From the NCBI GenBank assembly GCA_002422025.1, contig DISV01000004.1:216367-278308 (forward strand): a stretch of DNA of 61,942 nucleotides. The letters are read 5' to 3'. The position numbers and the translations under genes were made by a program. This DNA comes from Patescibacteria group bacterium UBA6201. GTDB taxonomy: Bacteria > Patescibacteriota > Minisyncoccia > Phycocordibacterales > UBA918. Positions 4,770 through 40,924 of this stretch are shown piece after piece. Every line of letters begins with the position of its first letter. Position 1 is the stretch's first letter. The notes beneath the pieces are model-generated. The model searched no databases and was not told where the DNA came from. It worked only from the letters and a program-made list of their open reading frames with translations.

Positions 4770-4771
4770 CT

Positions 4772-21876: not shown

Positions 21877-22944
21877 CTAAAATGGGTTTGAGGCTCCACG
21901 CACTTCAAAGTGTAGGTGAGCTCCAGTGGACTTCCCAGTAGTCCCGACATACCCAATCGTCTCTCCTGACTCAACTGACGCTCCGACACTAACCGCGTTA
22001 CTAGAAGTATGTGCATAGAGAGTCTGCGCGCCACTCGCATGCTTGATAACCATATAGTTTCCATAACCGCCATTCCAACCACCACTCTTTGAAACAATAA
22101 CTTCACCAGCGGCGGCGGCCCGAATAACAGTACCGGCAGCAGCGGCAAGGTCAACGGCGTTGTAACCGTGTATACCTTGTGTTCGGACTGCCCCAGGAAC
22201 TGGGTGAACGAAACCACCACCACCTGATGCACCGCCAGTAACCCGGGTTGGGGACGATCCACTTGAGCCGCTTGTTTTCTTAGGAGTAGCCTGGTGCATA
22301 ATGCCACCCGGAACTACTACAGTGTCTCCAGTTGCAATGTCAGTAGCTGACGCAAGACGGTTATATGAAATAATATCGCTAATCATCGCATCTACCTCTT
22401 CAGAACTTTCCGCACCATACTTCTTAGTAATGGACGCAAGGGTTTCACCATTTTTTACAACGTGTCGCACACCAGTAATCGGCAAGATAATTAAAGTATC
22501 CCCTGGTTGAACTGACTTAGGATCACTGATGTCATTGGCCCACAAAATAGTGTTAACGGAAACTCCATACATTTCAGCAATATGGGAGAGTGTCTCACAT
22601 CGCTCGGCCGTACATGGGCGCACAACATGAACACCAATTTCGCCACCGAGATTTGTTGCATCAGTATTTTCAGAAAAAGGACCACTAGATTGTAGTGCCC
22701 CTTCTTCGACGATAATGTCGCCTCCACCTTGATTTGACTTCAAATCAGGACCAGTCGCTGAAGACAATAACTTCACTTCTCCTGCTCCAGATGTGGATTG
22801 TGGTTTTTCATAAACCAAAGTATCACCATTTAAAAGGCCGGCTACACTAGATAGCCAACCAGCCTGTACGGAGAGGGGAACAATAATGAGTAAAACCACT
22901 ACCGCCGCTTCTAGAAAGCGAGTTTGTTTATGGTTTAAATTCAA
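21877..22944 (-). CDS. LysM-domain M23-family peptidoglycan metalloendopeptidase
   Basis: Signal peptide. Two LysM-like repeats (HVVRPCTAERCETLSHIAEMYGVSVNTILWAN and HVVKNGETLASITKKYG). M23 core with HGYNAVDLAA and GAHLHFEV. The start is a TTG. Confidence 0.85.
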   Translation of the reverse strand: MNLNHKQTRFLEAAVVVLLIIVPLSVQAGWLSSVAGLLNGDTLVYEKPQSTSGAGEVKLLSSATGPDLKSNQGGGDIIVEEGALQSSGPFSENTDATNLGGEIGVHVVRPCTAERCETLSHIAEMYGVSVNTILWANDISDPKSVQPGDTLIILPITGVRHVVKNGETLASITKKYGAESSEEVDAMISDIISYNRLASATDIATGDTVVVPGGIMHQATPKKTSGSSGSSPTRVTGGASGGGGFVHPVPGAVRTQGIHGYNAVDLAAAAGTVIRAAAAGEVIVSKSGGWNGGYGNYMVIKHASGAQTLYAHTSSNAVSVGASVESGETIGYVGTTGKSTGAHLHFEVRGASNPF

Positions 22945-25342: not shown

Positions 25343-26167
25343 ATGCTGATTAGAATGGATAAGTTTGAAACTAAGAAATCGTTAGGGCAAAATTTTCTAA
25401 ACAGTAAGGTGGTACCGGAGTGGCTTTGTGATGCCGGGGAAGTGGTGAGTGGAGATTTGGTTTTAGAGATTGGACCTGGTACTGGCGCCTTGACGCAGGT
25501 GCTAATAGAGCATGGTGCACACGTGCTCGCTCTTGAAGCAGATCTACGCGCTATCGAGGTCCTCGAAGATAAATTCAAAGATGAAATAAAAAGTGGACAA
25601 CTAACCCTCGAGCACGCTGATGTTCGAGAATTGGATTTATCTAAGCTCCAACTCAAAGACCATAGTTTCAAGGTAGTCGCTAATATTCCATACTACCTAA
25701 CAGGATTCCTGTTCCGAGTTCTACTATCACGCGACATTCAACCTTCAACACTAGTCTTCTTGGTGCAAAAAGAGGTAGGGAAGAGAGCATCATCAAACAT
25801 ACAGAAGGGAGACAAGGAGTCGTTACTGTCTCTATCTCTTCAAGCTTTTGGCGAAGTAAAGTATGTGAAGAGTGTTGGAAGGGGTCATTTCACACCATCA
25901 CCTAAGGTGGATTCCGCTATCGTTGCGGTTTATAACATTAATCGTGATAAGTTCGCTGAGCATTCGGCCGACTTCTTTTTTGAGATACTCCATTTAGGCT
26001 TTGGTTCAAAAAGGAAACAATTGCTGGGTAATTTGGCTAAAAAATATACCCGAGCGAGGCTTCTACAGTTATTTAATGAGGCAGATATAGCGCCTGATGC
26101 TCGTGCTGAGGATGTCCCGATTTGGAAATGGCTTACCTTAACTAGAGCTCTAGAAGAGAAACAGTAG
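25343..26167 (+). CDS. rsmA: 16S rRNA (adenine1518/1519-N6)-dimethyltransferase
   Basis: KKSLGQNFL, the SAM-binding LEIGPGTGALT, and NIPYY motifs. An alternative ATG lies at 25355. Confidence 0.9.
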   Translation: MLIRMDKFETKKSLGQNFLNSKVVPEWLCDAGEVVSGDLVLEIGPGTGALTQVLIEHGAHVLALEADLRAIEVLEDKFKDEIKSGQLTLEHADVRELDLSKLQLKDHSFKVVANIPYYLTGFLFRVLLSRDIQPSTLVFLVQKEVGKRASSNIQKGDKESLLSLSLQAFGEVKYVKSVGRGHFTPSPKVDSAIVAVYNINRDKFAEHSADFFFEILHLGFGSKRKQLLGNLAKKYTRARLLQLFNEADIAPDARAEDVPIWKWLTLTRALEEKQ

Positions 26168-26236: not shown

Positions 26237-27070
26237 ATGAGAATAAACCCTCGCATTGCGGTAGCATTCGTGGTCGGCCTCACTATGGTGGGCGGTTCCT
26301 ATTTGTTGTCCCAAAATTCTGAACCAACAACTATCAACAATCAAATGTTAATAGCCATAGAGAATCCAGCGCGAAAATTCATCGACGTCACTGATAATGA
26401 CCAAGATGGTTTACCAGATTGGCAAAATTCTCTTTCACTCAATACCATAAACCTCAATGAAGAAGACGAGGGAACAAGGACCAGCGCCCTAGCTATCAAA
26501 CTGGCTACCTTAACCACCGCCTCCGAGGCTAATTCGGACACCATTCTTGCGTCCGTAGGAAGCGACTTGGCCCGTGAGGGGTTAGACACAGAGTTTACTC
26601 GGGAAGATATAACTATAGTTGAGGATAACACCCCCGACTCACTACACTCTTATGGTAACAAGGTAGCAGCAATCGCTCTTGATAACGCTCCACCAGCTGG
26701 TACGGAAGATGAATTAACTATTCTTAATCGAGCCTTAGTTCGCAATGATATCAATGTTCTTGAAAATCTCTCTCCGACTATCGTTTCTTATGAGAGAATG
26801 ATAGAGGCAATGCTAGCGACCAAAGTACCATCATCGATGGTACGGGAACATTTGTCTTTACTTAATGTCTACCAAGCTATCTTAAATGACATCAAAGGTT
26901 TCCAAGGAGTTTTCACCGATGCTTTGCCAGCCATGATTCGCTTCCGCCGCTATCAGGCTGATGTTGAGGCTCTGTATGTTGCCCTTAATCTCTTATACCT
27001 ACAATTAGATGACCGAGGTATAGAGTGGGGGGCAAGTGATCGAGCTTCACAATTCATCGTTATAGAATGA
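26237..27070 (+). CDS. Hypothetical membrane-anchored protein, first gene of the T4SS-like locus
   Basis: N-terminal TM anchor. DNDQDGLPDWQN calcium-binding-like (thrombospondin type 3-like) motif. Otherwise unknown. Confidence 0.6.
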   Translation: MRINPRIAVAFVVGLTMVGGSYLLSQNSEPTTINNQMLIAIENPARKFIDVTDNDQDGLPDWQNSLSLNTINLNEEDEGTRTSALAIKLATLTTASEANSDTILASVGSDLAREGLDTEFTREDITIVEDNTPDSLHSYGNKVAAIALDNAPPAGTEDELTILNRALVRNDINVLENLSPTIVSYERMIEAMLATKVPSSMVREHLSLLNVYQAILNDIKGFQGVFTDALPAMIRFRRYQADVEALYVALNLLYLQLDDRGIEWGASDRASQFIVIE

Positions 27071-28638
27071 GTATGAGATTTTTATCTTTTAAAACAAAAA
27101 TCCTGTTAGTCGCCTTAGCGATGATAATTCTGCCTATCGGGTATTACAATACAGAGAAAGCCGAAGCACAAAGTATCGCCAGCTTAGCTGGTTCGCTCCT
27201 TGGAGGACTTGGTGGTGGTGGGGATACGGTACGCATAGTAAGTGACACCTCCGAGTCTTCAATCACTACTGCCCTACAAAATACTCTAACCAGAGTATTT
27301 GGTGGAATTGCTTCTGGGGAACTCCAATCAATCAATCTAAAAGAGACAGTCCTTGACCCAATTGCTTGGAATATGGCCAAACAACTCCAGCAACAGATGA
27401 CTGGAGAACTTCTACAGTGGTTAGGTGGCGAACTGCCAGGACAGAATGGAGAAGTTCCTTTTGTACAAAATTATTCGGAATTCTATGGTGACTTGCTGGA
27501 TGACGTAGCTGGAGAGGTAATATTCGGTTCGGACCTCAAAGGTCTTTGTTCTGAAGAGCAGGAATTCAAAGCGCGTCAAAAAGCTTACAATGCTTATATT
27601 AAAAGCCGTAGCAATCAAGAGATCTTTTCTTGTAACGACAATGCCTTGGCTAGTTCTAACAACGAAAACTTATTAACGAAGATATTTAAAAGTACAGTTA
27701 ATTGTGACGGTACTTCCATTTGTGCAGGATACAAAGCAGAAAATCACCTAGCTCTCCGCCAAGCCAACGCAGTAGCTAACGAAAATCGTATACTAGACTA
27801 CAGCCGTGGAATGAAACCACAAAGAGTGTGTAAGGTGATTAACGAGCCTGATGGAAGTCCCCGACAACTTTGTGAAATCGTTAACCCACCATACTTAGCC
27901 GCAGACAATGTATCTTTCCAAATCAACCAAGTGCCTAGTCTCCAATTGTTACAGATGGACGAATTCAATGAAATCGTATCTAGTTTTATGACTCAACTGA
28001 CAAATGAAGCAGTAACTGGTATCAGTTCACTAGCAAACAATGTAGACTTCACTGGCGTACTTGGTCTTAGTGGTAACCCTGACTATACCAACCTACTTTT
28101 TGGAAGTGATGGCGGTTTAGCTTACATAGACAGCTTGGTACAAGATGATGTATCACAGTATCAAAGCTTTGGAACCAATCCAATACAACAATCTTTAACC
28201 ATAGAACAAAAAAACCTTTCCCTACAAACTCTCATTGTCAACGAAGTTAGTGCTCTAGAAGCAAAGACCGCTTCCAATCAAATTACTTATGGTAGCTGTT
28301 ACAGTCTACCCCTAACCTCTGAACTTAAGGACACTCTGGACACTGCAAAAATTAGTATGGAAATTGCTTCTACTGCAGTAAGTATTTTGACTGTTTTGAA
28401 TCAGCAATATACTAGTGCTACAGACGCTAGCAGTAAAAACTCCACAATGTCTACCTATGCCAGTTATAGAAATCAAGGTTTGTTCAGTACAGAACAAAAA
28501 AATCAGGAGTTGCAACTAACTTTTATTGACTACACATTTGCAATAATGGTCGACCAGTTCAAGTACGACATGGCAGCTAAACAACAAAGTTGTGGTGGAC
28601 CATTCGACTATCAAGGGCTAATAAGCGGTAGTAACTAG
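27067..28638 (+). CDS. Hypothetical secreted or anchored protein (523 aa, several Cys pairs)
   Basis: Overlaps the previous stop by 4 nt. N-terminal TM/signal, a Gly-rich stretch LLGGLGGGGD, and no recognised domain. Confidence 0.6.
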   Translation: MSMRFLSFKTKILLVALAMIILPIGYYNTEKAEAQSIASLAGSLLGGLGGGGDTVRIVSDTSESSITTALQNTLTRVFGGIASGELQSINLKETVLDPIAWNMAKQLQQQMTGELLQWLGGELPGQNGEVPFVQNYSEFYGDLLDDVAGEVIFGSDLKGLCSEEQEFKARQKAYNAYIKSRSNQEIFSCNDNALASSNNENLLTKIFKSTVNCDGTSICAGYKAENHLALRQANAVANENRILDYSRGMKPQRVCKVINEPDGSPRQLCEIVNPPYLAADNVSFQINQVPSLQLLQMDEFNEIVSSFMTQLTNEAVTGISSLANNVDFTGVLGLSGNPDYTNLLFGSDGGLAYIDSLVQDDVSQYQSFGTNPIQQSLTIEQKNLSLQTLIVNEVSALEAKTASNQITYGSCYSLPLTSELKDTLDTAKISMEIASTAVSILTVLNQQYTSATDASSKNSTMSTYASYRNQGLFSTEQKNQELQLTFIDYTFAIMVDQFKYDMAAKQQSCGGPFDYQGLISGSN

Positions 28639-28643
28639 ATTTA

Positions 28644-30668
28644 ATGATTATGAGTCTTCTTAGTAGAAACATTGGAATCATCTTGATAACGTGTTTCGTT
28701 CTGGCTTTTTTTGCTCTGCAAAACCCCTTTATTGCTGAGGCCCAGACTGGTGCGGGACTTAGCGAGACCAATGGAGGTACCTCCAACGTACCCTCAACTT
28801 TAGTTGACGAAACCAATAATGACTCTGGAGAGGACGGTCCCCCTGGCATTGGTGAGAGACTAAAGTTTACCGGCTACCGCCTTGATCTCTTTAATGTACT
28901 TTCTTCATTGGGAGCCCTGGTTGCCTGGCTCGGTGGTTCACTTCTTGACGCTACCATTGGTGTTTTTACTGTTGGTATGTACGAGACATCGGAATATTTT
29001 CAGCTCGATGAAACGATTAGAACGATGTGGGGGATTATCCGAGATATATTCAATCTACTCTTTATCTTTGGCCTGATTTTTGCCGGGTTTAAATTAATTC
29101 TTGGTAAAGATGACTCGGGCTCAAAACAAATGATTGGTTCGATTATTGTGGCGGCGTTACTCATCAATTTCAGTCTCTACGCCGCGCAAATGGTAGTGGA
29201 TTTCAGTAATGTTATGGCCTACCAAATTAATAATTTGATCCAAGCGCCCGAAACCACTGTTGTTTTAGGAGGATGGAGTGTGCCAAATATCTCCACCAGC
29301 TTCACTCAACTTACTAATCTAGATCAGCTTGGAAACCAATCAGAAGAAATGGCGGAAGTGGCAGGACTTGGTGTGGACACATTAGGTGCTGCAGTAGTAT
29401 TAGGTCTTTTATTTACAGTTTTTTACTCAATTTTAGGCTTTGTTTTTGCGGCTGGGGCATTTGTTTTATTTTCACGTTTCATTGCCCTAATCTTCTTAAT
29501 GATTTTTTCACCAGTCATATTCTTGGGCTTTATATTCCCAAATTTTAAGAGCTACAGTAGCCAGTGGGGGAAACTCCTTATGAGCCAGGCTCTTGTTGGT
29601 CCAGCTTTTCTCTTTATGCTGTATCTCTCTTTGCAGGCACTATCAGGACTGGCTAGCATACCACCTTCACAGTTTACAATAACCAATCTGACCATTTACT
29701 TATTAATCGTAACGGCCTTTTTGTGGGGATCATTGATGGTTGCCAGGAGCATGAGTACCTGGGGAGCACTGCAGGCTTACAATGCCGGTGACGCAATGGA
29801 ACGTAGGGCAAGACGAGTTGCCGGTGGTGCTACGGTTGGACTAGCCGGCAGAGGCCTGAGATCGAGCATTGGTAAGTGGTCCCAAGGCTATGCGGACAGT
29901 GACAAGGCTAAAGACCGTGCTGTTAACAGCTGGGTAGGTAGACGAGCTCTCAATCTAACCACTAAACTTGGCGACAGCAGTTTTGATGCCCGCAAAATTG
30001 GTGGAGTAGGGACAAAGTTGGGTCTTGGAGAAGGTACTAAGGGAGGATACGCGACAAAAACTAAAGATGTAATAGAAAGAGAAAAGAAACGTGCTGAAAG
30101 TCTAGGTACAGTAAGTGACGAGGATGAGCGCGTATCTAGCTTACAAATAGACATAGAAGCTAGCGAACAGACGATAAAGGACAAGAAAGAGGAAATCAAA
30201 AAGGCACAAAAAGATAAAACGGCTGCTAAGACTGATAAAGAGAGGAACCAAATACAAGCAGATATTGACCTAAAGCGTTCTGAAATTGAAACTGCTGAGG
30301 AGAACTTACAAAAAAGGAAGGAGGCCTTACAGGCAGAAAAATACCGCAGACAACTCGGCACTATTCCCACAACTATTGTAGATAGTTTGAAGGTTAAGAG
30401 GGATGAAATAAAAACTAAATTGGTGGCCTATGAGCAAGCACTACCAGCAGATAAGGAACCGCTACGCGAAGAGATAGCAAAACTTAAGAAAGAGTTGGCT
30501 AAGGAAGAGAAAGAAGCTAATAAAGAAAGTGGCGGATACGCCACAACTGTTGAAAGCTATGGGGCTGTTAAGAATTGGTTTCTTGGTAGAAATAAGGCTC
30601 AAAATAACGAGGCTGGTAGCGAGATTCGTAAGGAATATAAAAGTAAAGTAAAAAGTAAAGACAGGTAA
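28644..30668 (+). CDS. VirB6/TrbL-like polytopic membrane protein with a K/E-rich coiled-coil tail
   Basis: Signal/anchor, then about 7 hydrophobic helices across about 330 aa, then a charged C-terminal region of about 290 aa. The assignment rests on topology and context, not on a diagnostic motif. Confidence 0.5.
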   Translation: MIMSLLSRNIGIILITCFVLAFFALQNPFIAEAQTGAGLSETNGGTSNVPSTLVDETNNDSGEDGPPGIGERLKFTGYRLDLFNVLSSLGALVAWLGGSLLDATIGVFTVGMYETSEYFQLDETIRTMWGIIRDIFNLLFIFGLIFAGFKLILGKDDSGSKQMIGSIIVAALLINFSLYAAQMVVDFSNVMAYQINNLIQAPETTVVLGGWSVPNISTSFTQLTNLDQLGNQSEEMAEVAGLGVDTLGAAVVLGLLFTVFYSILGFVFAAGAFVLFSRFIALIFLMIFSPVIFLGFIFPNFKSYSSQWGKLLMSQALVGPAFLFMLYLSLQALSGLASIPPSQFTITNLTIYLLIVTAFLWGSLMVARSMSTWGALQAYNAGDAMERRARRVAGGATVGLAGRGLRSSIGKWSQGYADSDKAKDRAVNSWVGRRALNLTTKLGDSSFDARKIGGVGTKLGLGEGTKGGYATKTKDVIEREKKRAESLGTVSDEDERVSSLQIDIEASEQTIKDKKEEIKKAQKDKTAAKTDKERNQIQADIDLKRSEIETAEENLQKRKEALQAEKYRRQLGTIPTTIVDSLKVKRDEIKTKLVAYEQALPADKEPLREEIAKLKKELAKEEKEANKESGGYATTVESYGAVKNWFLGRNKAQNNEAGSEIRKEYKSKVKSKDR

Positions 30669-30671
30669 CCT

Positions 30672-31262
30672 ATGTACGATACATCACAACAGCCAAAAAA
30701 AATGCGCGACCGTTATGCGGAACTACCAGATGAGGTAAGGGAGCTTTTTGAGTACGGTACAGTTGAACAAACTTTACAGAAAATTAGCCAGGAATTCGGT
30801 TTAAAAAACGAGGATATATCGCTACTCCAAATGGAGGTAGACCTTATCTTATACGGCTTCTTGACCAGAGTCGATCTGGCTCTGAGACTACAAGAATCAC
30901 TTAGTATTGAGGAATTACGAGCAAAACAAATAGCCAAAAGGCTCGAAGAAGATTTGTTTGTAATAGTTGAGCAATTCCTTACATATATAGAAGGTTTACT
31001 GAATGAAAATGAAGACTTCGGAAGACCTCTTATTACCACACAAATCAAAGAGAGTTCATCTCAAACACCGGAGTCTTCTGTTTCCACAGGAGACCAGCCA
31101 GAAGACGTTACTACATCCATCAAACCCCTTCGCACTTTTGCAGAAGATGTTGAGCTTAGTCGTGTTCACGGCTATGGTTCGTTTCAAAGTGGGGAAGTCG
31201 GAGATGAAACAGATGACACTCCGGTACATCACTCAAGCCAAGATGATGTACTCAAAAAATAG
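30672..31262 (+). CDS. Hypothetical acidic cytoplasmic protein
   Basis: 196 aa, no TM helix, acidic C-terminus. Lies within the T4SS-like operon. Confidence 0.55.
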   Translation: MYDTSQQPKKMRDRYAELPDEVRELFEYGTVEQTLQKISQEFGLKNEDISLLQMEVDLILYGFLTRVDLALRLQESLSIEELRAKQIAKRLEEDLFVIVEQFLTYIEGLLNENEDFGRPLITTQIKESSSQTPESSVSTGDQPEDVTTSIKPLRTFAEDVELSRVHGYGSFQSGEVGDETDDTPVHHSSQDDVLKK

Positions 31263-31342
31263 CACTTGATTTCAATGTTATTATTGAGACACACCAAACC
31301 AAGTTCCAAGTACTAAGCGCGCTGTGTACAGTTAACTAATCT

Positions 31343-31750
31343 ATGCGTTTCGAAGTCCCACAATTCATTGAAATAGAAGATAAGATATTTGGTCCACTAA
31401 CCTGGCGGCAATTCGTATACGTAGCTGGTGGGGGAGGATTGGCAGCCGTATTCTTCTTCTTCACTCCATTTATTATATTTGTATTGATTGGTATACCAAT
31501 CGCCGCTCTAACTTTTCTTTTAAGCTTTTATCCAGTCAACAATCGCCCGTTCGCACTATTTCTTGAGTCTGCAGTGAATTATTTTAAAGGTTCAAAATTA
31601 TATCTATGGCGAAAGAGTGGCAGCGGCGTATACAAAGGAGCCGAAACCGAAGGCAATGGCAGTCCTTCATACCTACCTCCAACCAATACTGATAATATCG
31701 CTTCTTTGTCGCGACGATTAGAGATGAAGGCGATTCAAAAACCTAATTAG
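31343..31750 (+). CDS. PrgI-family (VirB3-like) small membrane protein
   Basis: VPQFIEIEDKIFGPLTWRQFVY followed by two TM helices. This is the hallmark arrangement of PrgI-family proteins that precede VirB4 in Gram-positive T4SS loci. Confidence 0.7.
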   Translation: MRFEVPQFIEIEDKIFGPLTWRQFVYVAGGGGLAAVFFFFTPFIIFVLIGIPIAALTFLLSFYPVNNRPFALFLESAVNYFKGSKLYLWRKSGSGVYKGAETEGNGSPSYLPPTNTDNIASLSRRLEMKAIQKPN

Positions 31751-31775
31751 TGACTTCTTCCAAAGAAGTGGCACG

Positions 31776-31854
31776 CTGCGACCTAATTTTTAAGGAAGCG
31801 TTAGCTGACTATAAAAATTAAAGTGCCCTTGTGGTGTATCCACTCTTGAAAGAA
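31776..31854 (+). repeat. 79-nt repeated intergenic element, copy A (92 percent identical to 42123-42201)
   Basis: 73 of 79 positions are identical to copy B. It contains an internal hairpin, taattttta ... taaaaatta, around agc-gtta-gct. Confidence 0.8.
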
Positions 31855-31936
31855 GCCTGATGTAGGCACCATAAGTTATATAGTGTGAGTTAGCCGTCAA
31901 TGTTTTAGCACTTGGATGTTAGAATAATAGTCAATA

Positions 31937-32572
31937 ATGGCAAACCAAAACACTAGCCAAAAATTTGTACCCCTCAGGGACATTAAAGATAATGTGGTAG
32001 TTCTTAAGAATGGCCAGATGAATATGGTGCTTTTAGCATCCTCGATTAACTTTGCGTTGAAGTCTATAGACGAACAGGAGGCAATCTTGCGTCAGTTCCA
32101 AACCTTCCTCAACACAATAGATTTTTCTGTGCAATTCTATATTCAGTCTCGTCGCCTTAACATTCAACCCTATCTTGATATGTTAAGTGGACGCGAAGAG
32201 AAACAAGACAATGACCTAATGAAGATTCAATTGCGTGAATATATGCAATTCATCAAAACTTTTACTAGCGAAGTAGAGGTAATGAGTAAGAGCTTTTTTA
32301 TTGTCGTACCGTACACACCCGTTGCAGCCAATCTTCAGAACAACCTTGAAGGCTTCAAAGATCTGATTGGCGGTAAAAAGGACGTATACTTTGATGACAA
32401 GAACTTTATTGAACACAAACTCCAACTTGAACAACGTGTCTCATTAGTTGAGCAAGGATTGTCGGGAATCGGTGTGCGTACCATTTTGCTACAGAGCGAG
32501 GAGTTGGTTGAATTGTATTATCATATCTTTAATCCTGGTGAGGTTGGAGGAACCGCACCCGGCGGAAAGTAG
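31937..32572 (+). CDS. VirB4 N-terminal-domain-like protein (stand-alone, 211 aa)
   Basis: VPLRDIKDNVVVLKNGQMNMVLLASSINFALKSIDEQEAILRQFQTFLNTIDFSVQFYIQS follows the pattern of the N-terminal region of Gram-positive VirB4/TcpF/Orf16-type ATPases. It ends 2 nt before the VirB4 gene. Confidence 0.5.
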   Translation: MANQNTSQKFVPLRDIKDNVVVLKNGQMNMVLLASSINFALKSIDEQEAILRQFQTFLNTIDFSVQFYIQSRRLNIQPYLDMLSGREEKQDNDLMKIQLREYMQFIKTFTSEVEVMSKSFFIVVPYTPVAANLQNNLEGFKDLIGGKKDVYFDDKNFIEHKLQLEQRVSLVEQGLSGIGVRTILLQSEELVELYYHIFNPGEVGGTAPGGK

Positions 32573-32574
32573 TT

Positions 32575-34377
32575 ATGGGAATTTTCGATTTCATTAAAAA
32601 AGTAAATAAAGAGGGTAGCAATAAGTCGACACTGGACATCGACAGCGCTTTAATGACGCTAGAAGATGTTGTAGCTCCCTCAGCTGTGTCGGTCAGTCCT
32701 CGTAGCATAAACATAAGTGGACAAAACGCTCGTGTATTTTTTGCTGTTTCCTACCCACGTTATCTAAATGACGGTTGGTTAGAGCCAATATTAAACCTGG
32801 AAAAAGAACTAGATATCTCAATAGTCATCCACCCAATAGATACTGCCGAGACCTTAAAAAAATTCCAAAAGAAAGTGGCGGAGGTACAGAGCCAGATTAG
32901 TATCAACGAGGAAAAGGGGATGGTACGTGACCCACAACTTGAAGCTGCCTACCGAAACCTAGAAGAATTACGCGACAAACTTCAACAAGCTGAAGAAAAA
33001 CTCTTTGATGTTGGACTCTACATTGCCATCTACGGAAAGGACGATGAGGCCTTGAATAAAACCGAGTCAGAAGTGAAAGGTATTTTGGACTCAAGGTTAG
33101 TCTATATAAAGCCCGCTCTTTTCCAACAGGAACAAGGCCTGCGTAGTATTCTACCCACAATGACGGATGAGCTATTAGTTCATAGTAAATTTAATTCCTC
33201 TCCATTATCCAGCTTCTTTCCTTTCACTTCGTTTGATCTCACGAGCGACAACGGTATTCTTTATGGCATCAATCGCCACAACTCCTCCTTGGTTCTTTTT
33301 GATCGCTTTTCTCTCACCAACTATAATTCCGTCACCTTCGCTACCTCCGGTGCCGGCAAGTCATATGCAATCAAGCTGGAGATATTGCGCTCCTTAATGT
33401 TTGGCACCGAGGTTATCGTAATCGACCCGGAGCGGGAATATGAATATTTGGCCGAAGCTACCGGTGGCCGCTTTTTTAACATTGCCCTTTCTTCCACTCA
33501 TCATATCAATCCATTTGACCTACCTGACCCAGGGGAAGATGAGGAGCCTGCAGATATTTTGCGTTCACACATCATTGAACTGACTGGGCTTTTTCGCCTA
33601 ATGCTTGGCGGCCTTACACCCGAAGAGGAGACCGTTATCGACCAAGCTCTACACGAAGTCTATGCCCTAAAAGACATCACTGGCGATGTGAGCTGGTCTG
33701 GTCAAGAACCACCACTATTAACTGACTTCGAAATGGTATTGGCTGGGATGGATGGTAGTGATTCTTTGATAGCAAGACTTCAGAAGTACACCAGTGGTAC
33801 TTGGTCAGGTTTTATGAATCAACCGACTAATGTCGATATCAATCAAAAATTCATCGTTTTTTCACTTCGCGATATGGAGGACGAACTAAAGTCCGTCGCA
33901 ATGTACATCATTACTAACCATATTTGGAATATGGTACGCAGACGCTTACAGAAACGTCTTTTGGTTATTGACGAGGCCTGGTGGATGATGAAATCAGAAG
34001 ACACAGCCTCGTTCCTTTTTTCACTCGCAAAACGTGGTCGTAAATACTATCTTGGTATCGCTACCATCACGCAAGATGTGGACGACTTCTTACGATCACC
34101 TTATGGAGTACCGATGATCACCAACTCGTCTTTGCAGTTTTTAATGAAGCAATCGCCCACTTCGATTGACCTTCTCCAGCGTACCTTTAATCTAACCGAC
34201 GAAGAAAAGCTATTATTACTTGAGAGTAACGTGGGGGAAGGCATCTTCTTCGTAGGACTAAAACACGTGGCCATTAAAGTTATAGCTAGCTATACTGAGG
34301 ACCAGATTATTACATCTGACCCACATCAAATCCTCCAAATAAAACAAGCTCGTGCAGAGTTAAAAAACGCCTCCTAA
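32575..34377 (+). CDS. virB4: VirB4-family T4SS ATPase (PrgJ/TraE-like, AAA_10/DUF87 type)
   Basis: YPRYLNDGWLEPILN N-domain pattern, Walker A TSGAGKS, Walker B LLVIDEAWWMM, and ATITQDVDDF. Confidence 0.8.
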   Translation: MGIFDFIKKVNKEGSNKSTLDIDSALMTLEDVVAPSAVSVSPRSINISGQNARVFFAVSYPRYLNDGWLEPILNLEKELDISIVIHPIDTAETLKKFQKKVAEVQSQISINEEKGMVRDPQLEAAYRNLEELRDKLQQAEEKLFDVGLYIAIYGKDDEALNKTESEVKGILDSRLVYIKPALFQQEQGLRSILPTMTDELLVHSKFNSSPLSSFFPFTSFDLTSDNGILYGINRHNSSLVLFDRFSLTNYNSVTFATSGAGKSYAIKLEILRSLMFGTEVIVIDPEREYEYLAEATGGRFFNIALSSTHHINPFDLPDPGEDEEPADILRSHIIELTGLFRLMLGGLTPEEETVIDQALHEVYALKDITGDVSWSGQEPPLLTDFEMVLAGMDGSDSLIARLQKYTSGTWSGFMNQPTNVDINQKFIVFSLRDMEDELKSVAMYIITNHIWNMVRRRLQKRLLVIDEAWWMMKSEDTASFLFSLAKRGRKYYLGIATITQDVDDFLRSPYGVPMITNSSLQFLMKQSPTSIDLLQRTFNLTDEEKLLLLESNVGEGIFFVGLKHVAIKVIASYTEDQIITSDPHQILQIKQARAELKNAS

Positions 34378-34383
34378 CACATT

Positions 34384-35052
34384 ATGATACGTAACGCTGT
34401 TGTTAAAAAAGCCACTCCAAAAAATACGGGCTTGTCAGCGTCTAATACCAAAGCGTTTCATGCCACCACTGGTGAATTATTGCTAAACAACTCAAATGTA
34501 AGTAACGTCCAAAGACTATATCGACCAGTCAATAACAATGCACAAAGACTACCGACAAACTCTTCTCAAAGGTCAATACGAGCCTCAAATGACCACAGAC
34601 TCAAGCCGGCTAATATGTCGCGAGTCAAAGAAGTTGCAAGTAAAGCGGTAGACATAACCAATGCTGCGAGTGCAGCCTGGTTTATTATCGGTGTTACTTG
34701 GATTTTATATATGATCCAATTCGTGTTCGCTTTAATGTCATTAATAGGTATTTCAGCGATGATTGCTGTAGGGGAAAGCTGGGTGGGCTACATTGACTTT
34801 ATGGACTTATTTTCAGGTACTGCTCAAAGTATGGCCTTCGTGGGAATGGGAATGACGGCTGTTATGGGTATATTTACTTTGATTGCGTCTATAGCAATCT
34901 TTATGTTCCGAGGAGTAGATATTAACAAGTCTTATAGTGTTCCCATTATGGCTCTATGCTTCGCACTAAACACCGTACCGGCAGCTAGTCTAGTGCCATG
35001 GATTTGGGTATGGTGCCTCTATGTGGTCAAAAGTCAGGTTAACAAACAGTAA
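34384..35052 (+). CDS. Hypothetical polytopic membrane protein (polar N-terminal region of about 95 aa plus about 4 TM helices)
   Basis: Hydrophobicity pattern only. Lies within the T4SS-like operon. Confidence 0.55.
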   Translation: MIRNAVVKKATPKNTGLSASNTKAFHATTGELLLNNSNVSNVQRLYRPVNNNAQRLPTNSSQRSIRASNDHRLKPANMSRVKEVASKAVDITNAASAAWFIIGVTWILYMIQFVFALMSLIGISAMIAVGESWVGYIDFMDLFSGTAQSMAFVGMGMTAVMGIFTLIASIAIFMFRGVDINKSYSVPIMALCFALNTVPAASLVPWIWVWCLYVVKSQVNKQ

Positions 35053-35069
35053 TACGCTATAATGTTTGT

Positions 35070-35777
35070 GTGTCTAGCAGATTTTTCATTATCTTAATAC
35101 TGTGCTTACTTTCTATCGGTCAAAATACCGAGGCACAATTTTCTGTTAACAAAACTGAAAAAACTCGAATAACGGCTGGCGAAGTGGAAGTTATCGTGGA
35201 AGCTGATACTTACGTCCCTTCTTTTTATAGAGGTCGAGCCGAACCGACTAGCGGAAATTTAATGAGGGCCATTGCCATACCTCTCGATATTAATTCGGGT
35301 AATTTCACCTACCGATGGAGCTTGAACGGACAATCATTATCTAGTAGTGACCAAGCGGTGACTTTCCCAGCTCCGATTGGAGATAATTTTACGCTTGAGG
35401 TCACGGTACTCAACAATGGGGTTTTCTGGTCAGAGAAAGGTGAAACAATATCACTCTCAAACCCCGAGGTAATATTTTATGAAGAGAACACTTTGCGGGG
35501 TATTGGGACAATAGCTATCAAAAATGACTTTTCATTAATCGGCGCTGAGGCAAGCATAACTGCTGAGCCGTTTTTTGTTGGGAAACAAAATCAAAATAAT
35601 CTACAAGGAAGCTGGAAGATAGACGACGGAGCGGTAACCACTACTGATTGGAGAAAGTTGACCTTTATTAGACCAGAAGAACCAAATGCGAAATATTTAG
35701 TCGAATTAAACATTTTCAATCGTGTTAATTTGAACGAGCAAGCTCGCAATAATTTTAACTTGCATCTGGAAATATGA
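35070..35777 (+). CDS. Hypothetical secreted protein
   Basis: GTG start. Clear signal peptide (FFIILILCLLSIGQNTEAQ). Beta-rich composition. Confidence 0.55.
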   Translation: MSSRFFIILILCLLSIGQNTEAQFSVNKTEKTRITAGEVEVIVEADTYVPSFYRGRAEPTSGNLMRAIAIPLDINSGNFTYRWSLNGQSLSSSDQAVTFPAPIGDNFTLEVTVLNNGVFWSEKGETISLSNPEVIFYEENTLRGIGTIAIKNDFSLIGAEASITAEPFFVGKQNQNNLQGSWKIDDGAVTTTDWRKLTFIRPEEPNAKYLVELNIFNRVNLNEQARNNFNLHLEI

Positions 35778-36316
35778 AGAACCTATTTTACATAACACTA
35801 ACACTGTCAGCAGCGCCACTATTGGCTTTAGCGCAAGAGGGGAGAATTACTTTTATTGAAAACATGCCCTTCATAGGAAATGCAGTGAACTCAACTGAGG
35901 ATTATGTTAGTGCTCTATATATGATTGCCATTAGTGTAGCGGCCATACTGGTGGTAATTAGACTTATGATGGCTGGGGCAAAATATATGTTATCTGAAAT
36001 TGTGACCGAGAAAGGAAAGGCAAAGGATGACATCAAAGGCGCCCTACTTGGTCTATTAATTATATTGGGGGCAGTTACGATCTTAAACACTATTAACCCC
36101 CAATTGACTCGCACTGACATTTTCCGCAATGCTGATAAGTTCGTACCTACCGCAGCCAAAAGTGGAAACAACTCAACACCAGTACAACAAAATACTGGAA
36201 ACTGTACACAAGGTACAAAATGGATGGAGTGTGAGGCTAACGGTGAATTCAGTGCTAGGTGTTCTGCGCCCAGTGACACGAGTTGGTGTGCGGGCACTGT
36301 TAATGTAATACCATAG
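35774..36316 (+). CDS. T4SS pilin-like protein (TrbC/VirB2-like) with a Cys-rich C-terminal extension
   Basis: Signal peptide ending in ALAQEG. Two hydrophobic helices flank MMAGAKYMLSEIVTEKGKAKDDIKGALLGLLIILGA, which is the T4SS_pilin pattern seen in CPR and Gram-positive bacteria. An extra tail of about 60 aa carries 5 Cys. Confidence 0.6.
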   Translation: MKNLFYITLTLSAAPLLALAQEGRITFIENMPFIGNAVNSTEDYVSALYMIAISVAAILVVIRLMMAGAKYMLSEIVTEKGKAKDDIKGALLGLLIILGAVTILNTINPQLTRTDIFRNADKFVPTAAKSGNNSTPVQQNTGNCTQGTKWMECEANGEFSARCSAPSDTSWCAGTVNVIP

Positions 36317-36317
36317 T

Positions 36318-37496
36318 ATGAAACGTACGATTTTTATTATATCGGGGTCAATAGTCTTGCTATTAATATTTTCAACATGGGTTTTTTTATTACTCTTTGG
36401 TACTCCAAAAAACATTGACGAGGCCTTCACTAATCTGGGGCTCGGTGGTGACTCGACACCAATTGATCCTAATGCCAACTTTTCACCTGAACAGATTGCC
36501 CAACTCAATATCAACGCCGGTACTTTAGTACAACTCACCACAAAGCCAGTAGCGGGACATAGCTTCCTTAGCATAGCCAGCAGCACAACTAACAAGTTAC
36601 TCTACGCTGAAAAGGGGGTGGGTCACATTTACGAAGTAGACATCTCCTCTGGTGTGGAAAATCGAATCTCGGCCAAGACATTCTTGGCAGTTACTGATGC
36701 AGAATTTTCTCCTAATGGTAAGTTTGTGGTTTTAGTGAGTGAGGCTCAAAATGATACAACTGCAACTTTAGAAAACCTAGAAAACGGAATTGATTATGAC
36801 CTCCCTAGTAACGCTACTGATTTGAAATTTGTTAGTGACACTGAGTTACGCTATACCGTAACAAGCACATCCGGTACTATTGGTTATTCTTTTGACTTAA
36901 TCGATGTTACTACTAACCAGATTTTTTCTGTTCCATTAACAGACATAAACACCATCTGGGGTGCCAATGAAACTTTTATTATGAGCAAGTCTGCTCCAAG
37001 ACTCCGTGGTGCATTATTTAGAGTTAATGGTAGCAAAATCTCAAAGATTGGAGAGAGCAGTTATGCATTGAGTGCAATCGCGCCATACATAAATAACAAC
37101 ATATACATCTTAACAAGCACAAACCTTGATAAGGGTGGAGTTCTTGAATCTAGAGTATTCAATGAATTGTCTGGTGAATTAAAGCCTTTACCTATTTTGG
37201 CCTGGCCTGAAAAATGTGTTTTTGATATCTTAACTCAAAATACACTATGGTGCGCAAGCTCGGCATCAGAACTTAGTCGCGACAGTCAAACTGACTGGTA
37301 CAAGGGTCTAGTAAATTTCTCAGATTTATTGTGGAAGATTGATACTGTTTCAGGCAAAGCAACCTTAATAGAGAATTTGACAGAAAGTTCTGGTCGTAAT
37401 GTTGATGTTATCGATATTTTAATAGATCCGAACAGTAAATTTTTACTTTTCAAAAACAAACTCGACGATAGTTTGTGGCTTAAGAAGATTAATTAG
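36318..37496 (+). CDS. Hypothetical membrane-anchored protein, possibly a beta-propeller
   Basis: N-terminal TM anchor, then repetitive beta-strand-like segments. No diagnostic motif. Confidence 0.5.
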   Translation: MKRTIFIISGSIVLLLIFSTWVFLLLFGTPKNIDEAFTNLGLGGDSTPIDPNANFSPEQIAQLNINAGTLVQLTTKPVAGHSFLSIASSTTNKLLYAEKGVGHIYEVDISSGVENRISAKTFLAVTDAEFSPNGKFVVLVSEAQNDTTATLENLENGIDYDLPSNATDLKFVSDTELRYTVTSTSGTIGYSFDLIDVTTNQIFSVPLTDINTIWGANETFIMSKSAPRLRGALFRVNGSKISKIGESSYALSAIAPYINNNIYILTSTNLDKGGVLESRVFNELSGELKPLPILAWPEKCVFDILTQNTLWCASSASELSRDSQTDWYKGLVNFSDLLWKIDTVSGKATLIENLTESSGRNVDVIDILIDPNSKFLLFKNKLDDSLWLKKIN

Positions 37497-38232
37497 AAAG
37501 AGGTTCAGAGTCGCGATGACGGCGTAAAAGGAACTCTTGTCCAATCGCAAACAGGTTACTGACCACGAAGTATAGTGCCACTGATGCAGAGAGGGTATAG
37601 GCAACCATACCAATAATAACTGGTAGAACGTAGCGCATATTCATATTCATACTGCGAGCAAAATCTGCTTTCATATCTACCACACCCTCTTTTCTAGGCT
37701 CTGATTTAGGTAGAGAAAAATGAGCATGAATGAACTGAGTAAAACCTGCCAAAATCGCCAACGGAAGACTCTTTTGTGCAATATCTACAAAACCAAGGAA
37801 TATCATATCGGCCATTTCGGGAGTCGGAACAAAACTGTAAAGTATCTCGGTATTAAAACCTGGCAAAGGAACACCTCCCCCTTTAGAAACCGCAAAATAA
37901 AGTGCAATTACGATTGGTATCTGTAGGAACATCAAGAAAATTCCAGAAAAGGGATTTATGCCAGCGTCTTTATATGCAGACATGGTAGCGCGAGCTAATT
38001 CTTCACGATTGTCTTTATGCTTCTCTTTTAGCTCTTTCATCTGCGGTTCAAGTTCACGCACTACCTTTTGCATCTTGGCCGCCTTAATTGAAAGCGGTAA
38101 GAGAATAAACTTAACCACCAAGGTAATAGCAATAATAGATAGTCCGACGTCACCACCAGGAATAACATCCACAAAAAAGACCAAGCCGTTATATATTGGA
38201 TCAAAGAAGAAAGTGTGCCAGACGTAGGACAT
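37489..38232 (-). CDS. yidC: YidC/Oxa1-family membrane protein insertase (short form)
   Basis: 247 aa, 5 TM pattern. The conserved synteny rpmH-rnpA-yidC is present, along with motifs PLSIKAAKMQ and NPFSGIFLMFLQIPI. Confidence 0.85.
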   Translation of the reverse strand: MSYVWHTFFFDPIYNGLVFFVDVIPGGDVGLSIIAITLVVKFILLPLSIKAAKMQKVVRELEPQMKELKEKHKDNREELARATMSAYKDAGINPFSGIFLMFLQIPIVIALYFAVSKGGGVPLPGFNTEILYSFVPTPEMADMIFLGFVDIAQKSLPLAILAGFTQFIHAHFSLPKSEPRKEGVVDMKADFARSMNMNMRYVLPVIIGMVAYTLSASVALYFVVSNLFAIGQEFLLRRHRDSEPLSN

Positions 38233-38247
38233 AGTTTATTTTTAAAT

Positions 38248-38571
38248 TTATTTAATGTTATTCAGCAAATTTTCCAGAGTCGCCTTCAGTTCAGAAAAAC
38301 CAACATTAGCAGCTGGCGCCTTGGTTAAAACAATATACACGCCTTTAAGATTTTTTTCTCGCGACGCACGGTAAATAATGTTGTAGAGCCTGCGGCGCAG
38401 ATAATTGCGGTCAACGGCTTTTTTATAAATCTTTTTACCAACCACTACAGCACCATGGAACTCTGGGGTAGGGGAGTAAATCAGACTAAAAGCTGGACTA
38501 TGATAACGTCGCCCTAAAGAAAAAAAGCGATCAAACTCTTTTTTAGTTAATCGCTCCTTTTTCTTCAACAT
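38248..38571 (-). CDS. rnpA: Ribonuclease P protein component
   Basis: 107 aa, basic. KKAVDRNYLRRRL (RNR-like motif). Located directly downstream of rpmH. Confidence 0.85.
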   Translation of the reverse strand: MLKKKERLTKKEFDRFFSLGRRYHSPAFSLIYSPTPEFHGAVVVGKKIYKKAVDRNYLRRRLYNIIYRASREKNLKGVYIVLTKAPAANVGFSELKATLENLLNNIK

Positions 38572-38647
38572 ATTTATGTAGTTTTAGTTTAAACCAATGG
38601 CTTTACCATTTGGTGTCGACCGAGGGGCAGCTACACACAGCTAACAA

Positions 38648-38797
38648 CTATTTGCTAGGCTTAACAGCCAAACGCACACGACCTTTCTGACGTCGGGCTT
38701 TTAGAACACCGCTTCCTTTAGGGCTATTTTTGCGCGCCAAAAAACCGTGGGTGGTCATTCGCTTCTTTTTGCTTGGTTGATAGGTTCGTTTAGGCAT
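38648..38797 (-). CDS. rpmH: 50S ribosomal protein L34
   Basis: [23 protein letters not shown] is the canonical L34 N-terminus. The longer ORF-track start at 38884 is rejected. Confidence 0.9.
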
Positions 38798-38938: not shown

Positions 38939-38958
38939 TTATCCCCACCTTATCCACA
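38939..38958 (+). promoter_or_regulatory. DnaA boxes upstream of dnaA
   Basis: ttatcccca (38939-38947, 1 mismatch) and a perfect ttatccaca (38950-38958). Confidence 0.7.
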
Positions 38959-39084
38959 TTGACGCACTTTCAAGTTCTCGGCGGTTTGGTTTTTGGAAGA
39001 ATTTGACCCAAAAGTTTACACCCCAAGTGAGGAGAGTATAATGCTCTGCATCGAGTTGTTAATCGCCAACGTCAATCATCGGTT

Positions 39085-40464
39085 ATGAATCAAGTCTCTC
39101 CATCAATCTCTAACAACTTCATGCAGACCGAGCAGGTAGATATAAAGAAGCTCTGGGACGACACCTTGGTCAACATAGAGCTAGCGATCACTCCAGCCAA
39201 CTTCAAGACCTGGTTTAGGGACACTCGCATCGTGTCCCTTGAGGACGGAACGATAGTACTCGGCGTACCAAGTGTATTTGTACGAGATTGGTTGAAAGAT
39301 AAGTTTCAGCCAATGATTTTGCGTGTCCTGCGCGAAAACGCCCCTTTTGTTCGTAATATCGATTACAGCGTAGTGGCTCGCAGTGAAAAAAAACAAGATA
39401 CCCGCGCTCAAAACATCAACGCAGCGTTACCTCTTGAAGAGTATTACATCAACAAGAGTGACAATCTCAACCCACGCTATTCCTTCGACACTTTCATAAT
39501 CGGACCCTTTAATGCACTAGCCCATGCAGCTGCCAAAACCGTGAGCGAGCGACCAGGCATCACCTACAACCCACTCTTTATTTACGGCAAGACGGGGCAC
39601 GGTAAGACCCACCTCATTCAAGCAGTTGGTAATCAACTCAAAAAAAGTGGCAAGAAAGTCTTCTATGTTACGGCGGAGCGCTTTACTGTTGATTACTTCA
39701 ACTCACTACAAAGTGGTACAGCTAACAGCTTTAAGGACAAATACCGACAGTATGATGTACTTGTGATGGATGATGTACAATTCTTAAATAGTAAGGAGAA
39801 AACTCAAGAAGAGTTGTTCCATTTGTTTAACACCCTGCACGATAACAATAAACAAATAGTGTTCTCTAGCGATATCCATCCAGCCCTACTTTCCGGTATG
39901 GAGGAGCGTCTCCAGTCACGTTTCGCAGCAGGAATGATTGTAGATATTCCAGCTCCCGACCTAGAGTCTCGTGCGGCTATTTTAAAGGCTAAGGCGGCAC
40001 AAAATAGCATCACTTTGGCCGACGATGTAATCGAATACCTAGCCGAATCTATAAACGGTAACATCCGTGAATTAGAAGGTGCGCTCAACTCCATAATGTG
40101 TCAATCACAACTACTGGGGCGCATCCTATCGGTAGATGAGGTCCGCCTAATTATTAAAAACAGTACCCGTCCCCGCCGCAACATGGCTGTGGATGATGTG
40201 GTGGAGAAAGTAGCCCAGTTTTTCAAGATTGAGCCAGCAAGTATCTATGAAAAGACTCGCCGTAAAGAGGTTGTGAAACCACGGCAACTGATTATGTATA
40301 TTCTGCGTGAAGATTTTGCAGTATCATATCCCACCATTGGTCAGAAGATGGGTGGTCGTGACCACACCACAGTTATTCACTCGTGTGAAAAAATAAAAAA
40401 CGAGCTGAAGCACAGCCCTGAACTCGAAGAAGAGGTTTCTCAAATCAGAATGCTGTTAAAGTAA
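39085..40464 (+). CDS. dnaA: Chromosomal replication initiator protein DnaA
   Basis: NPLFIYGKTGHGKTHL Walker A, VLVMDDVQFL Walker B, and the C-terminal DNA-binding signature GGRDHTTVIHSCEKI. Confidence 0.95.
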   Translation: MNQVSPSISNNFMQTEQVDIKKLWDDTLVNIELAITPANFKTWFRDTRIVSLEDGTIVLGVPSVFVRDWLKDKFQPMILRVLRENAPFVRNIDYSVVARSEKKQDTRAQNINAALPLEEYYINKSDNLNPRYSFDTFIIGPFNALAHAAAKTVSERPGITYNPLFIYGKTGHGKTHLIQAVGNQLKKSGKKVFYVTAERFTVDYFNSLQSGTANSFKDKYRQYDVLVMDDVQFLNSKEKTQEELFHLFNTLHDNNKQIVFSSDIHPALLSGMEERLQSRFAAGMIVDIPAPDLESRAAILKAKAAQNSITLADDVIEYLAESINGNIRELEGALNSIMCQSQLLGRILSVDEVRLIIKNSTRPRRNMAVDDVVEKVAQFFKIEPASIYEKTRRKEVVKPRQLIMYILREDFAVSYPTIGQKMGGRDHTTVIHSCEKIKNELKHSPELEEEVSQIRMLLK

Positions 40465-40924
40465 TCAAAGCGCCCACTTGTGTGGGCGCTTTGATTACTT
40501 ATTTGAAAACAGTATGGATAACTTGTGGGTAACTACTAAATAAGTCTGGGGAAAATCATTAGAACAATCCAGCACAAGGTGGGGAACACAGGGTTCAAAA
40601 CAGTAACAAAAAATATAACTAATACCCCAACCTCAATTACCCCCACACTGGTCCCTATGTTATAGGTAACGTCCTGTGGAAAACAATTCCCAAAAAACCT
40701 ATACTTAGAGCCTTAAAATGTAGTTTTCCCCTAATCCACAGAGCTAATAGTAATAGGGGTTGGTTTAAAAAATAAAAATTAACCATCACTATCCACAGAC
40801 CAATATCACTGACAGTCGGATACATTTAGGTCAGAGACGACAAACTACTAGGTTGAGTTATAATGGAGGTAATACGGAAAAGGGCCAATCTAACACATTA
40901 TAAATTCATCATAACTTCACCAGA
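40465..40924. other. Probable replication origin (oriC) in the dnaA-dnaN spacer
   Basis: Five one-mismatch DnaA boxes: 40514-40522, 40524-40532, 40675-40683, 40732-40740 and 40789-40797. An AT-rich tract lies at 40764-40783. The dnaA terminator hairpin is at 40464-40497. Confidence 0.7.

Follow-up and report, generated by a model that had tools for sequence, protein, structure and literature searches.

A conserved origin-proximal cassette of Paceibacteria: the Patescibacteria-clade type IV secretion system with six unannotated partners and no linked conjugation genes

Patescibacteria form a sizeable part of the diversity of bacteria, and the locus described here bears on the question of how they obtain from host cells the things they require. 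It lies in the genome of Patescibacteria group bacterium UBA6201, in a 61,942-nucleotide stretch of contig DISV01000004.1 (hereafter the window, meaning the whole of the DNA analysed), where a run of genes at 26237-37496 encodes the recognizable parts of a type IV secretion system (T4SS) alongside six previously unannotated proteins. What is such an apparatus for, when it sits in the core chromosome and has no relaxase, coupling protein or integrase beside it? The locus is near certainly the Paceibacteria form of a T4SS clade characteristic of Patescibacteria. As a whole, it is best explained (with a probability of about 0.6) as a derivative of the conjugation machinery of monoderms (MPF_FATA type), inherited vertically and located near the origin, which would have lost its DNA-processing parts and would now serve as a conduit for macromolecules of the host. 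Among the candidates for the interface with the host, the Patescibacteria T4SS is the foremost: the single species in which this was tested requires it and, in the genomes compared here, its ATPase is more conserved than DnaA.

The cassette consists of eleven co-directional open reading frames (ORFs), all on the + strand, which start at 26237, 27067, 28644, 30672, 31343, 31937, 32575, 34384, 35070, 35774 and 36318 and are called g1 to g11 below; an ENA gene call made independently for this contig contains the same genes. A preliminary description of the window, made from the letters alone, spoke of twelve genes, although its own list also sums to eleven. Its remark on tight packing is borne out, the 4-nt overlaps being two in number (27067/27070 and 35774/35777) and the remaining junctions measuring 2-18 nt, except for one gap of 80 nt and one of 186 nt.

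The most secure component is the VirB4 ATPase (32575-34377, +), a protein of 600 amino acids (aa) of the MPF_FATA type, CD1110 family. It matches the NCBIfam model conju_CD1110, for VirB4-like conjugal transfer ATPases, at 1.9e-109 and 367 bits, above the curated cut-off of 325, and the Pfam family P-loop_TraG at 2.7e-26. The Walker A (TSGAGKS) and Walker B (VIDEAW) motifs are intact, and the nearest proteins in the database carry the name Paceibacterota.

Directly ahead of it is a TrsD-like gene (g6, 31937-32572, +); 2 nt separate its stop codon from the start of virB4, which is in another reading frame. The 211-aa product of g6 corresponds to a stand-alone N-terminal domain of VirB4, as the preliminary description had proposed: it matches positions 100-250 of the NCBIfam model VirB4_plasma at 1.2e-11 and TrsD at 2.6e-4, and aligns to positions 8-134 of VirB4_CagE and 11-112 of CD1110, while the downstream 600-aa protein takes up the next positions of the same full-length models. 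Because the two proteins cover consecutive positions of the same models, they behave as a split VirB4, like TrsD and TrsE of pGO1; the TrsD-like gene adjoins virB4 in this arrangement in 79 of 81 loci. A direct hhalign comparison of the TrsD-like family with the VirB4 family of this clade gave no significant match, so that the relationship is drawn from the full-length NCBIfam VirB4 models and from a precomputed match to PF26593 (TraC-like). Taken together, the evidence is consistent with a split VirB4 gene, the N-terminal segment of which is encoded apart.

Three further components can be named. The small membrane protein of 135 aa at 31343-31750 (+) is PrgI/VirB3-like, with a match to PF12666 (PrgI) at 5.8e-10, over the gathering score, and its family is present in 78 of 81 loci. 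The 674-aa polytopic protein at 28644-30668 (+), with about seven transmembrane (TM) segments and a cytoplasmic tail of roughly 290 aa that is rich in K and E, is VirB6/TrbL-like. Here the label stands at the level of the family, five of 31 orthologues matching TrbL (PF04610; best 3.7e-8), and falls below threshold for the window protein alone, which has no Pfam match, a weak NCBIfam match to the CD3337/EF1877 mobilome membrane protein (1.9e-3), and a PDB profile match to TrwI, the VirB6 of R388, that is not significant (E 0.86). This family was found in 67 of 80 loci. The VirB2-type pilin (180 aa; 35774-36316, +) has a signal peptide, a two-helix hydrophobic hairpin and a Cys-rich C-terminal tail of 73 aa, and is encoded by the sole pilin-family ORF of the window. 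The situation is similar to that of VirB6: the window protein reaches 1.6e-3 with T4SS_pilin, under the gathering score, and its orthologue family matches T4SS_pilin in 26 of 30 members (best 2.4e-10) and TrbC/VirB2 in 6 of 30. The preliminary description had named profile searches for VirB3, VirB4, VirB6 and VirB2 as a way to overturn its reading; all four assignments hold.

Members of the pilin family vary in length from 122 to 614 aa. In one related locus (L081, 11774-13615), a VanY/M15B domain (3.8e-14) follows the VirB2 hairpin in the same ORF, and in another (L059, 15062-16360) there is a weak CHAP match (3.5e-3) in the corresponding position. These pilin-peptidoglycan-hydrolase fusions in some related Paceibacteria are putative, an assembly error being possible.

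How far is this gene set a property of the lineage? Relatives of the VirB4 protein occur in at least 535 species genomes, of which the best 80, all at least 68% identical, were kept; families for each slot of the cassette were counted with iterated hidden Markov model (HMM) searches over these related loci, and gene maps were drawn for 16 of them. The best genome matches are metagenome-assembled genomes of Paceibacteria, labelled Nomurabacteria, Kaiserbacteria or Paceibacterota. A family was recovered for every slot, in counts that are lowered because many loci end at contig ends, and in the maps gene order and membrane topology agree slot by slot. In this best 80 of at least 535, the cassette always stands between uvrD-rsmA on one side and yidC-rnpA-dnaA-dnaN on the other, and in one more distant genome the upstream NYN, DksA, ComM and M23/LysM peptidase genes are shared too. 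The check for synteny across relatives that the preliminary description had suggested thus finds the same cassette and the same flanks in about 80 species genomes of Paceibacteria.

Within the cassette, conservation is uneven. VirB4 identity ranges from 68 to 97% across the same set of genomes. The median identity to the window proteins is 71% for VirB4, as compared with 65% for UvrD, 58% for DnaA and 40% for DnaN; it is 50% for the TrsD-like protein, 43% for PrgI, 39% for the pilin, and 25-28% for the exterior proteins and the VirB6-like protein. Among these loci, which were picked by VirB4 similarity, VirB4 is more conserved than DnaA (39085-40464) in 58 of 60 genomes (loci L002-L081), and its identity exceeds those of DnaN and UvrD in each genome compared. 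Such constraint is unusually strong for a secretion ATPase. The combination of conserved cytoplasmic parts with diverged surface parts fits a conserved motor that would carry a host-facing, fast-evolving exterior.

The homologies of VirB4, TrsD and PrgI to conjugative MPF_FATA systems could also be read in a different way, namely that an ordinary integrative and conjugative element (ICE), or its remnant, has come to lie near dnaA by chance. We scanned all large ORFs of the window but one for domains at E<=1e-5, and six ORFs that were blank or unscanned at this threshold, including one of 1,875 aa, at E<=0.01. Relaxase, type IV coupling protein (T4CP; VirD4/TcpA) and integrase domains were absent from the scanned ORFs of the 62-kb window, in agreement with the preliminary description. 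In the 16 mapped loci, the interval from rsmA to yidC contains no unassigned ORF of T4CP size, except for a membrane protein of roughly 540 aa with 11-12 TM segments in L073 and L077. The cassette is not flanked by att-like repeats (only short, chance-level repeats were seen) or adjoined by a tRNA gene, and its GC content is close to that of the neighbouring DNA. In about 80 species, the best of at least 535, the cassette is a fixed occupant of this site, with no variable presence. An insertion context identical in so many species, together with the missing integrase and repeats and with a constraint on VirB4 stronger than that on DnaA, led us to reject the ICE reading, which is effectively refuted. 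Judged by its genomic setting, the cassette is a core-genome, vertically inherited apparatus and not an ICE, and conjugation by it is unlikely. The domesticated, chromosomal, non-conjugative apparatus of the preliminary description is supported by synteny, by conservation and by the missing mobility genes.

That description also noted that the locus has no hydrolase of the VirB1 type, which is so; a gene for a peptidoglycan hydrolase with LysM and M23 domains is, however, found 3.3 kb upstream of the cassette, outside it and on the opposite strand (21877-22944, -). At least 12 related genomes have it in synteny, the 10-kb flank taken for most loci being too short to reach it, and it might possibly stand in for the missing wall-opening activity.

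The six partner proteins had been described as members of no recognizable family. This remains so for g1, g2, g4 and g8; g9 and g11 gain predicted folds, Ig-like and TolB-like, respectively. All of the six but one were said to carry a signal peptide or TM segments, and the exception is indeed g4 (30672), which has neither feature. The six are lineage-specific: four are extracytoplasmic (g1, g2, g9 and g11), one is cytoplasmic (g4), and one is a small membrane protein (g8).

The secreted protein g9 (235 aa; 35070-35777, +) has a signal peptide followed by Ig-like repeats that resemble PKD and BiPBP_C, as indicated by Pfam searches with the family and by PDB profiles. BiPBP_C is matched by 10 of 30 family members, Ig_3 and PKD are matched as well, and the PDB profile search finds the Ig domain of phage T4 Hoc at 1.1e-4. 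The window protein and its counterparts in L002 and L003 have two repeats (about 235-245 aa), most other relatives three (about 320-350 aa); the family is present in 75 of 80 loci. The last gene, g11 (392 aa; 36318-37496, +), encodes an N-terminal TM anchor and an extracytoplasmic beta-propeller that is predicted to be TolB-like. Its family profile matches 12 distinct TolB sequences in PDB (best 1.6e-5), and individual members have weak Pfam matches to PD40, DPPIV_N and beta-propeller families. A pair of cysteines, C300 and C312, is invariant, and 69 of 80 loci have a member of the family.

At the other end of the cassette, g1 (277 aa; 26237-27070, +) is a bitopic protein with an N-terminal TM helix and an extracytoplasmic four-helix-bundle (4HB) domain, and belongs to no known T4SS family. 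It has a TSP3-like calcium-loop motif, DxDxDGxxDW, conserved in 31 orthologues, and PF18884 (TSP3_bac) is present in the g1 orthologue of L082 and in a distant homologue, P0151. An AlphaFold2 (AF2) model with a predicted local distance difference test score (pLDDT) of 77 shows the TM helix and the four-helix-bundle ectodomain. The best folds for it in PDB by Foldseek are generic 4HB ligand-binding domains of chemoreceptors, at E about 0.1, and a PDB profile search gave nothing significant. An analogy with VirB5 or VirB8 is not supported, solved VirB5 and VirB8 structures not being among the top 50 matches. The g1 family was recovered in 55 of 80 loci. Its neighbour g2 (523 aa; 27067-28638, +) is a signal-anchored, mostly helical extracytoplasmic protein of an orphan family, with invariant cysteines at C161, C189, C213, C219, C269, C411 and C509 and a near-invariant one at C255. 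The AF2 model, based on an alignment of 25 sequences, has a pLDDT of 62 and is confident for the C-terminal helical bundle only (370-510); Foldseek against PDB returned noise, and the PDB profile search no match. This family is present in 63 of 80 loci.

The cytoplasmic protein g4 (196 aa; 30672-31262, +) has a helical N-terminal half, an acidic tail that is probably disordered, and no TM segment. It evolves fast and has no match in Pfam, NCBIfam or PDB; its family was recovered in 67 of 80 loci, each time in the slot that separates the VirB6-like gene from prgI. The small membrane protein g8 (222 aa; 34384-35052, +) begins with a cytoplasmic N-terminus of roughly 95 aa, rich in S, N and R, followed by about four hydrophobic, TM-like segments. 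Its HMM family was detected in 26 of 80 loci; of the 16 loci that were mapped, about three quarters have a small protein with 1-3 TM segments in this slot. Pfam, NCBIfam and PDB searches returned no known relative for g8: its PDB matches to LHFPL tetraspan proteins (E about 0.006) are regarded as noise of the hydrophobic segments. The possibility that g8 is a second pilin was rejected on an hhalign comparison of the two families (probability 3.7%). A protein search with a concatenate of g2, g4 and g8 retrieved relatives of g2 only.

How might these parts work together? By analogy with established T4SS biology, a hexameric VirB4 with its separate TrsD-like N-domain would dock on PrgI/VirB3 and on the VirB6-like protein, pull the Sec-inserted VirB2 pilin out of the membrane and drive its polymerization into a tube; the extracytoplasmic partners would scaffold this filament through the wall and towards the host cell, and the whole apparatus would be a conduit for host macromolecules. 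A more speculative proposal, which we consider rather doubtful, is that g1, g2, g8, g9 and g11 form an undescribed wall-spanning module at the base of a monoderm VirB2 pilus, unrelated to VirB7/9/10 and to the PrgB/PrgC-type parts, and that the variable C-terminus of the pilin (a hydrolase in some relatives) is displayed in order to recognize or breach the host wall for uptake.

As to what passes through the conduit, uptake of macromolecules from the host is the leading function and nucleic acids are the leading candidate cargo, a tentative preference that we would put somewhat short of even odds. It is suggested by the absence of any coupling protein or relaxase linked to the cassette, by the reported lack of nucleotide biosynthesis in Patescibacteria as a group, and by the finding that comEC is dispensable in Southlakia epibionticum, the only species tested (PMC10633639, PMC12857230). 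In a cultured Microgenomatia parasite, uptake of host RNA has been described, along with tubular structures that are maybe T4SS pili (bioRxiv 10.64898/2026.06.21.733656, a 2026 preprint). Quinonero-Coronel et al. (2025, Microb Genom; PMC12102498) likewise propose import of DNA or other macromolecules, and a 2024 PNAS perspective regards the function of these T4SSs as "completely unknown" (PMC11665869).

Several points weigh against this reading. Direction and cargo of transport are not near certain, unlike the identity of the system. For most genomes of Patescibacteria, homologues of T4CPs have been reported at other sites (PMC12102498), and the Bordetella Ptl and Brucella VirB systems export without a coupling protein (cited in PMC12102498); since T4SSs that lack a T4CP can export, its absence is no proof of import. 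The VirB6 and pilin labels of the window proteins themselves come via family transitivity, and the VirB4-DnaA comparison is somewhat inflated by the choice of loci.

In the strongest competing account, the apparatus exports effectors, i.e., proteins such as wall hydrolases, toxins or host-manipulating factors, and delivers them into or onto the host bacterium; the substrates would come to the apparatus either via Sec, as with Ptl, or with the help of an unlinked T4CP. Protein export or another role was suggested by Wang et al. (2023, Cell; PMC10633639), T4CP-less exporters exist, most of the partners carry Sec signals or anchors, peptidoglycan-hydrolase domains are putatively fused to some related pilin-family members, as mentioned above (VanY in L081, weak CHAP in L059), and an essential lysozyme and peptidase are encoded in the Saccharibacteria cluster. 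Yet no candidate effector gene is found in or beside the cassette, all eleven slots being filled by conserved, structural-looking families, and the window has no T4CP; we regard export as possible but on the whole unlikely. More unlikely still is a pilus or adhesion organelle pure and simple, i.e., a VirB4-driven VirB2 filament that attaches to the host or senses it without passage of a substrate. It would account well for the parts retained, exactly the VirB2, B3, B4 and B6 needed for pilus biogenesis in Gram-negative bacteria, for the variable C-terminal tail of the pilin and for the fast evolution of the exterior parts. Patescibacteria, however, already attach and move by means of type IV pili (PMC12857230, PMC11665869), a PilB-like ATPase being encoded in the window itself, and VirB4 seems rather well conserved, relative to DnaA, for a factor that assembles an adhesin.

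The placement of the locus, embedded between rsmA and yidC-rnpA-rpmH-dnaA, was described correctly in the preliminary description: the flank identities RsmA, YidC, RnpA, L34, DnaA and DnaN are confirmed by domain scans and by the ENA gene call. The upstream flank is rsmA/ksgA (25343-26167, +; PF00398, 2.6e-41), syntenic in 53 loci, with a UvrD/PcrA helicase gene on the same side. Downstream, the conserved yidC-rnpA-rpmH block (37489-38797, -) is convergent with the cassette, and DnaA and DnaN are encoded beyond it. The dnaA gene with its DnaA-box clusters spans 38939-40797 (strand not assigned), one cluster (38939-38958) lying just 5' of dnaA and the other (40513-40797) between dnaA and dnaN. 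The cassette ends about 1.5-3 kb away from this region, which is a probable oriC, and since the DnaA-box clusters adjoin dnaA near the cassette, the label "origin-proximal" is reasonable.

An extended -10 element (TGCTATAAT) is located immediately 5' of the first cassette gene; scans for promoters and terminators within the locus gave a signal at, or barely above, chance. The largest gap in the cassette is the non-coding 186 nt between prgI and the TrsD-like gene (31751-31936), which could be the site of an internal promoter. It has no Rfam match, the Rfam search over the whole window having returned two tRNAs only.

Some other genes of the window deserve mention. The PilB-like ATPase (49303-50982, -) is a T2SSE ATPase of the PilB/GspE type with an MshEN domain (E 8.3e-110), and probably is the extension motor of a type IV pilus, the other host-interaction machine of Patescibacteria. 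The 1,875-aa ORF (56296-61923, -) has no Pfam match at E<=0.01; giant orphan proteins are common in genomes of the Candidate Phyla Radiation and often are surface proteins. A copper-handling cluster at 3519-6760 (+) consists of a CsoR-type metal-sensing repressor, DUF305, DUF411 and a P-type ATPase. The ORFs 16609-18336, 11877-12602, 53916-54614, 55705-56214 and 42178-42549 belong to no Pfam family; in the position that corresponds to the first of these, the NYN-DksA slot, L082 has an unannotated ORF of 362 aa. The FIST-domain gene 20543-21673 is missing from the corresponding slot in L082.

The known systems with which the cassette can be compared differ in how close they are. The closest is the Patescibacteria-clade T4SS itself. 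In a survey of 3,035 genomes (PMC12102498), the VirB4 proteins of Patescibacteria form a monophyletic clade inside MPF_FATA, genes for TrsD, PrgI/VirB3, VirB6 and VirB2-like proteins are widespread, relaxases are almost absent, and the T4SS is found near dnaA, dnaN, rnpA, ksgA and rpmH, chiefly in Paceibacteria and Microgenomatia; a 2025 FEMS review counts these T4SSs as notable newcomers (PMC12857230). The window cassette has an MPF_FATA-related VirB4 with an adjoining TrsD-like gene, PrgI/VirB3, VirB6 and a VirB2-like pilin, lacks a nearby relaxase and T4CP, and lies in the same neighbourhood of dnaA, dnaN, rnpA, ksgA (rsmA) and rpmH. Every defining feature of the clade is found, VirB6 and the pilin at family level and the MPF_FATA affinity by family-model score, and there is no essential difference.

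In Southlakia epibionticum ML1, a member of Saccharibacteria, the T4SS cluster SEML1_0005-0019 lies beside dnaA/dnaN and encodes VirB4, a TrsD-like protein, PrgI, VirB6-like proteins, an NTF2-like protein, a lysozyme, a peptidase, an exported Ig/PEGA protein and six pilins; it is without a coupling protein and relaxase, and by transposon sequencing nearly all of its genes are essential for epibiotic growth (PMC10633639). The two clusters are alike in their chromosomal, origin-proximal position, in VirB4, the TrsD-like protein, PrgI, a long-tailed VirB6-like protein, an exported Ig/PEGA-like protein and VirB2 pilins, and in the lack of a recognizable relaxase or T4CP. Compared by description, they differ in that S. 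epibionticum has six arrayed pilins and the window one. Further parts of the S. epibionticum cluster, namely a pair of VirB6-like proteins, an NTF2-like (VirB8-like) protein and, directly after virB4, a large lysozyme and a peptidase, are absent from the window cassette. The TolB-like propeller, the 4HB protein and the Cys-rich helical protein of the window are, again by description, unreported for S. epibionticum.

The Gram-positive MPF_FATA systems (CD1110 of the C. difficile conjugative transposon, TrsD/TrsE of pGO1, PrgH/I/J of pCF10) share with the cassette a VirB4 over the CD1110 cut-off, the TrsD/TrsE-like split, PrgI and, weakly, a membrane protein signal of the CD3337/EF1877 type. Unlike them, the window locus is without a relaxase, T4CP, VirB1-type hydrolase, VirB8-like protein and PrgB-type adhesin, has a VirB2 pilin, which the Gram-positive systems lack (PMC12857230), and is fixed in the core chromosome. 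Helicobacter pylori ComB and archaeal Ced, cited as precedents for import (PMC11665869, PMC12102498), resemble the cassette in having a set of the VirB2/B3/B4/B6 type without VirD4 or relaxase. The P-loop region of VirB4 matches the CedB model at 3.4e-11, with 42 bits against a cut-off of 700, and so is no CedB equivalog; homologues of ComB or CedA were not detected in the window locus, and in comparison with ComB it lacks the ComB7-10 outer-membrane core. The resemblance is best taken as functional analogy, not membership.

The kind of system represented here, chromosomal, origin-proximal, relaxase-less and repurposed, is therefore one already published. What the present locus adds is a defined, conserved 11-gene cassette of Paceibacteria in which six unannotated neighbours are conserved members, the predicted folds of g9 and g11, conservation of VirB4 above that of DnaA, and the occasional putative pilin-hydrolase fusions in relatives. 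In practical terms, the yield is a cassette definition, two folds, evidence consistent with a split VirB4, and four conserved orphan components that can be given priority.

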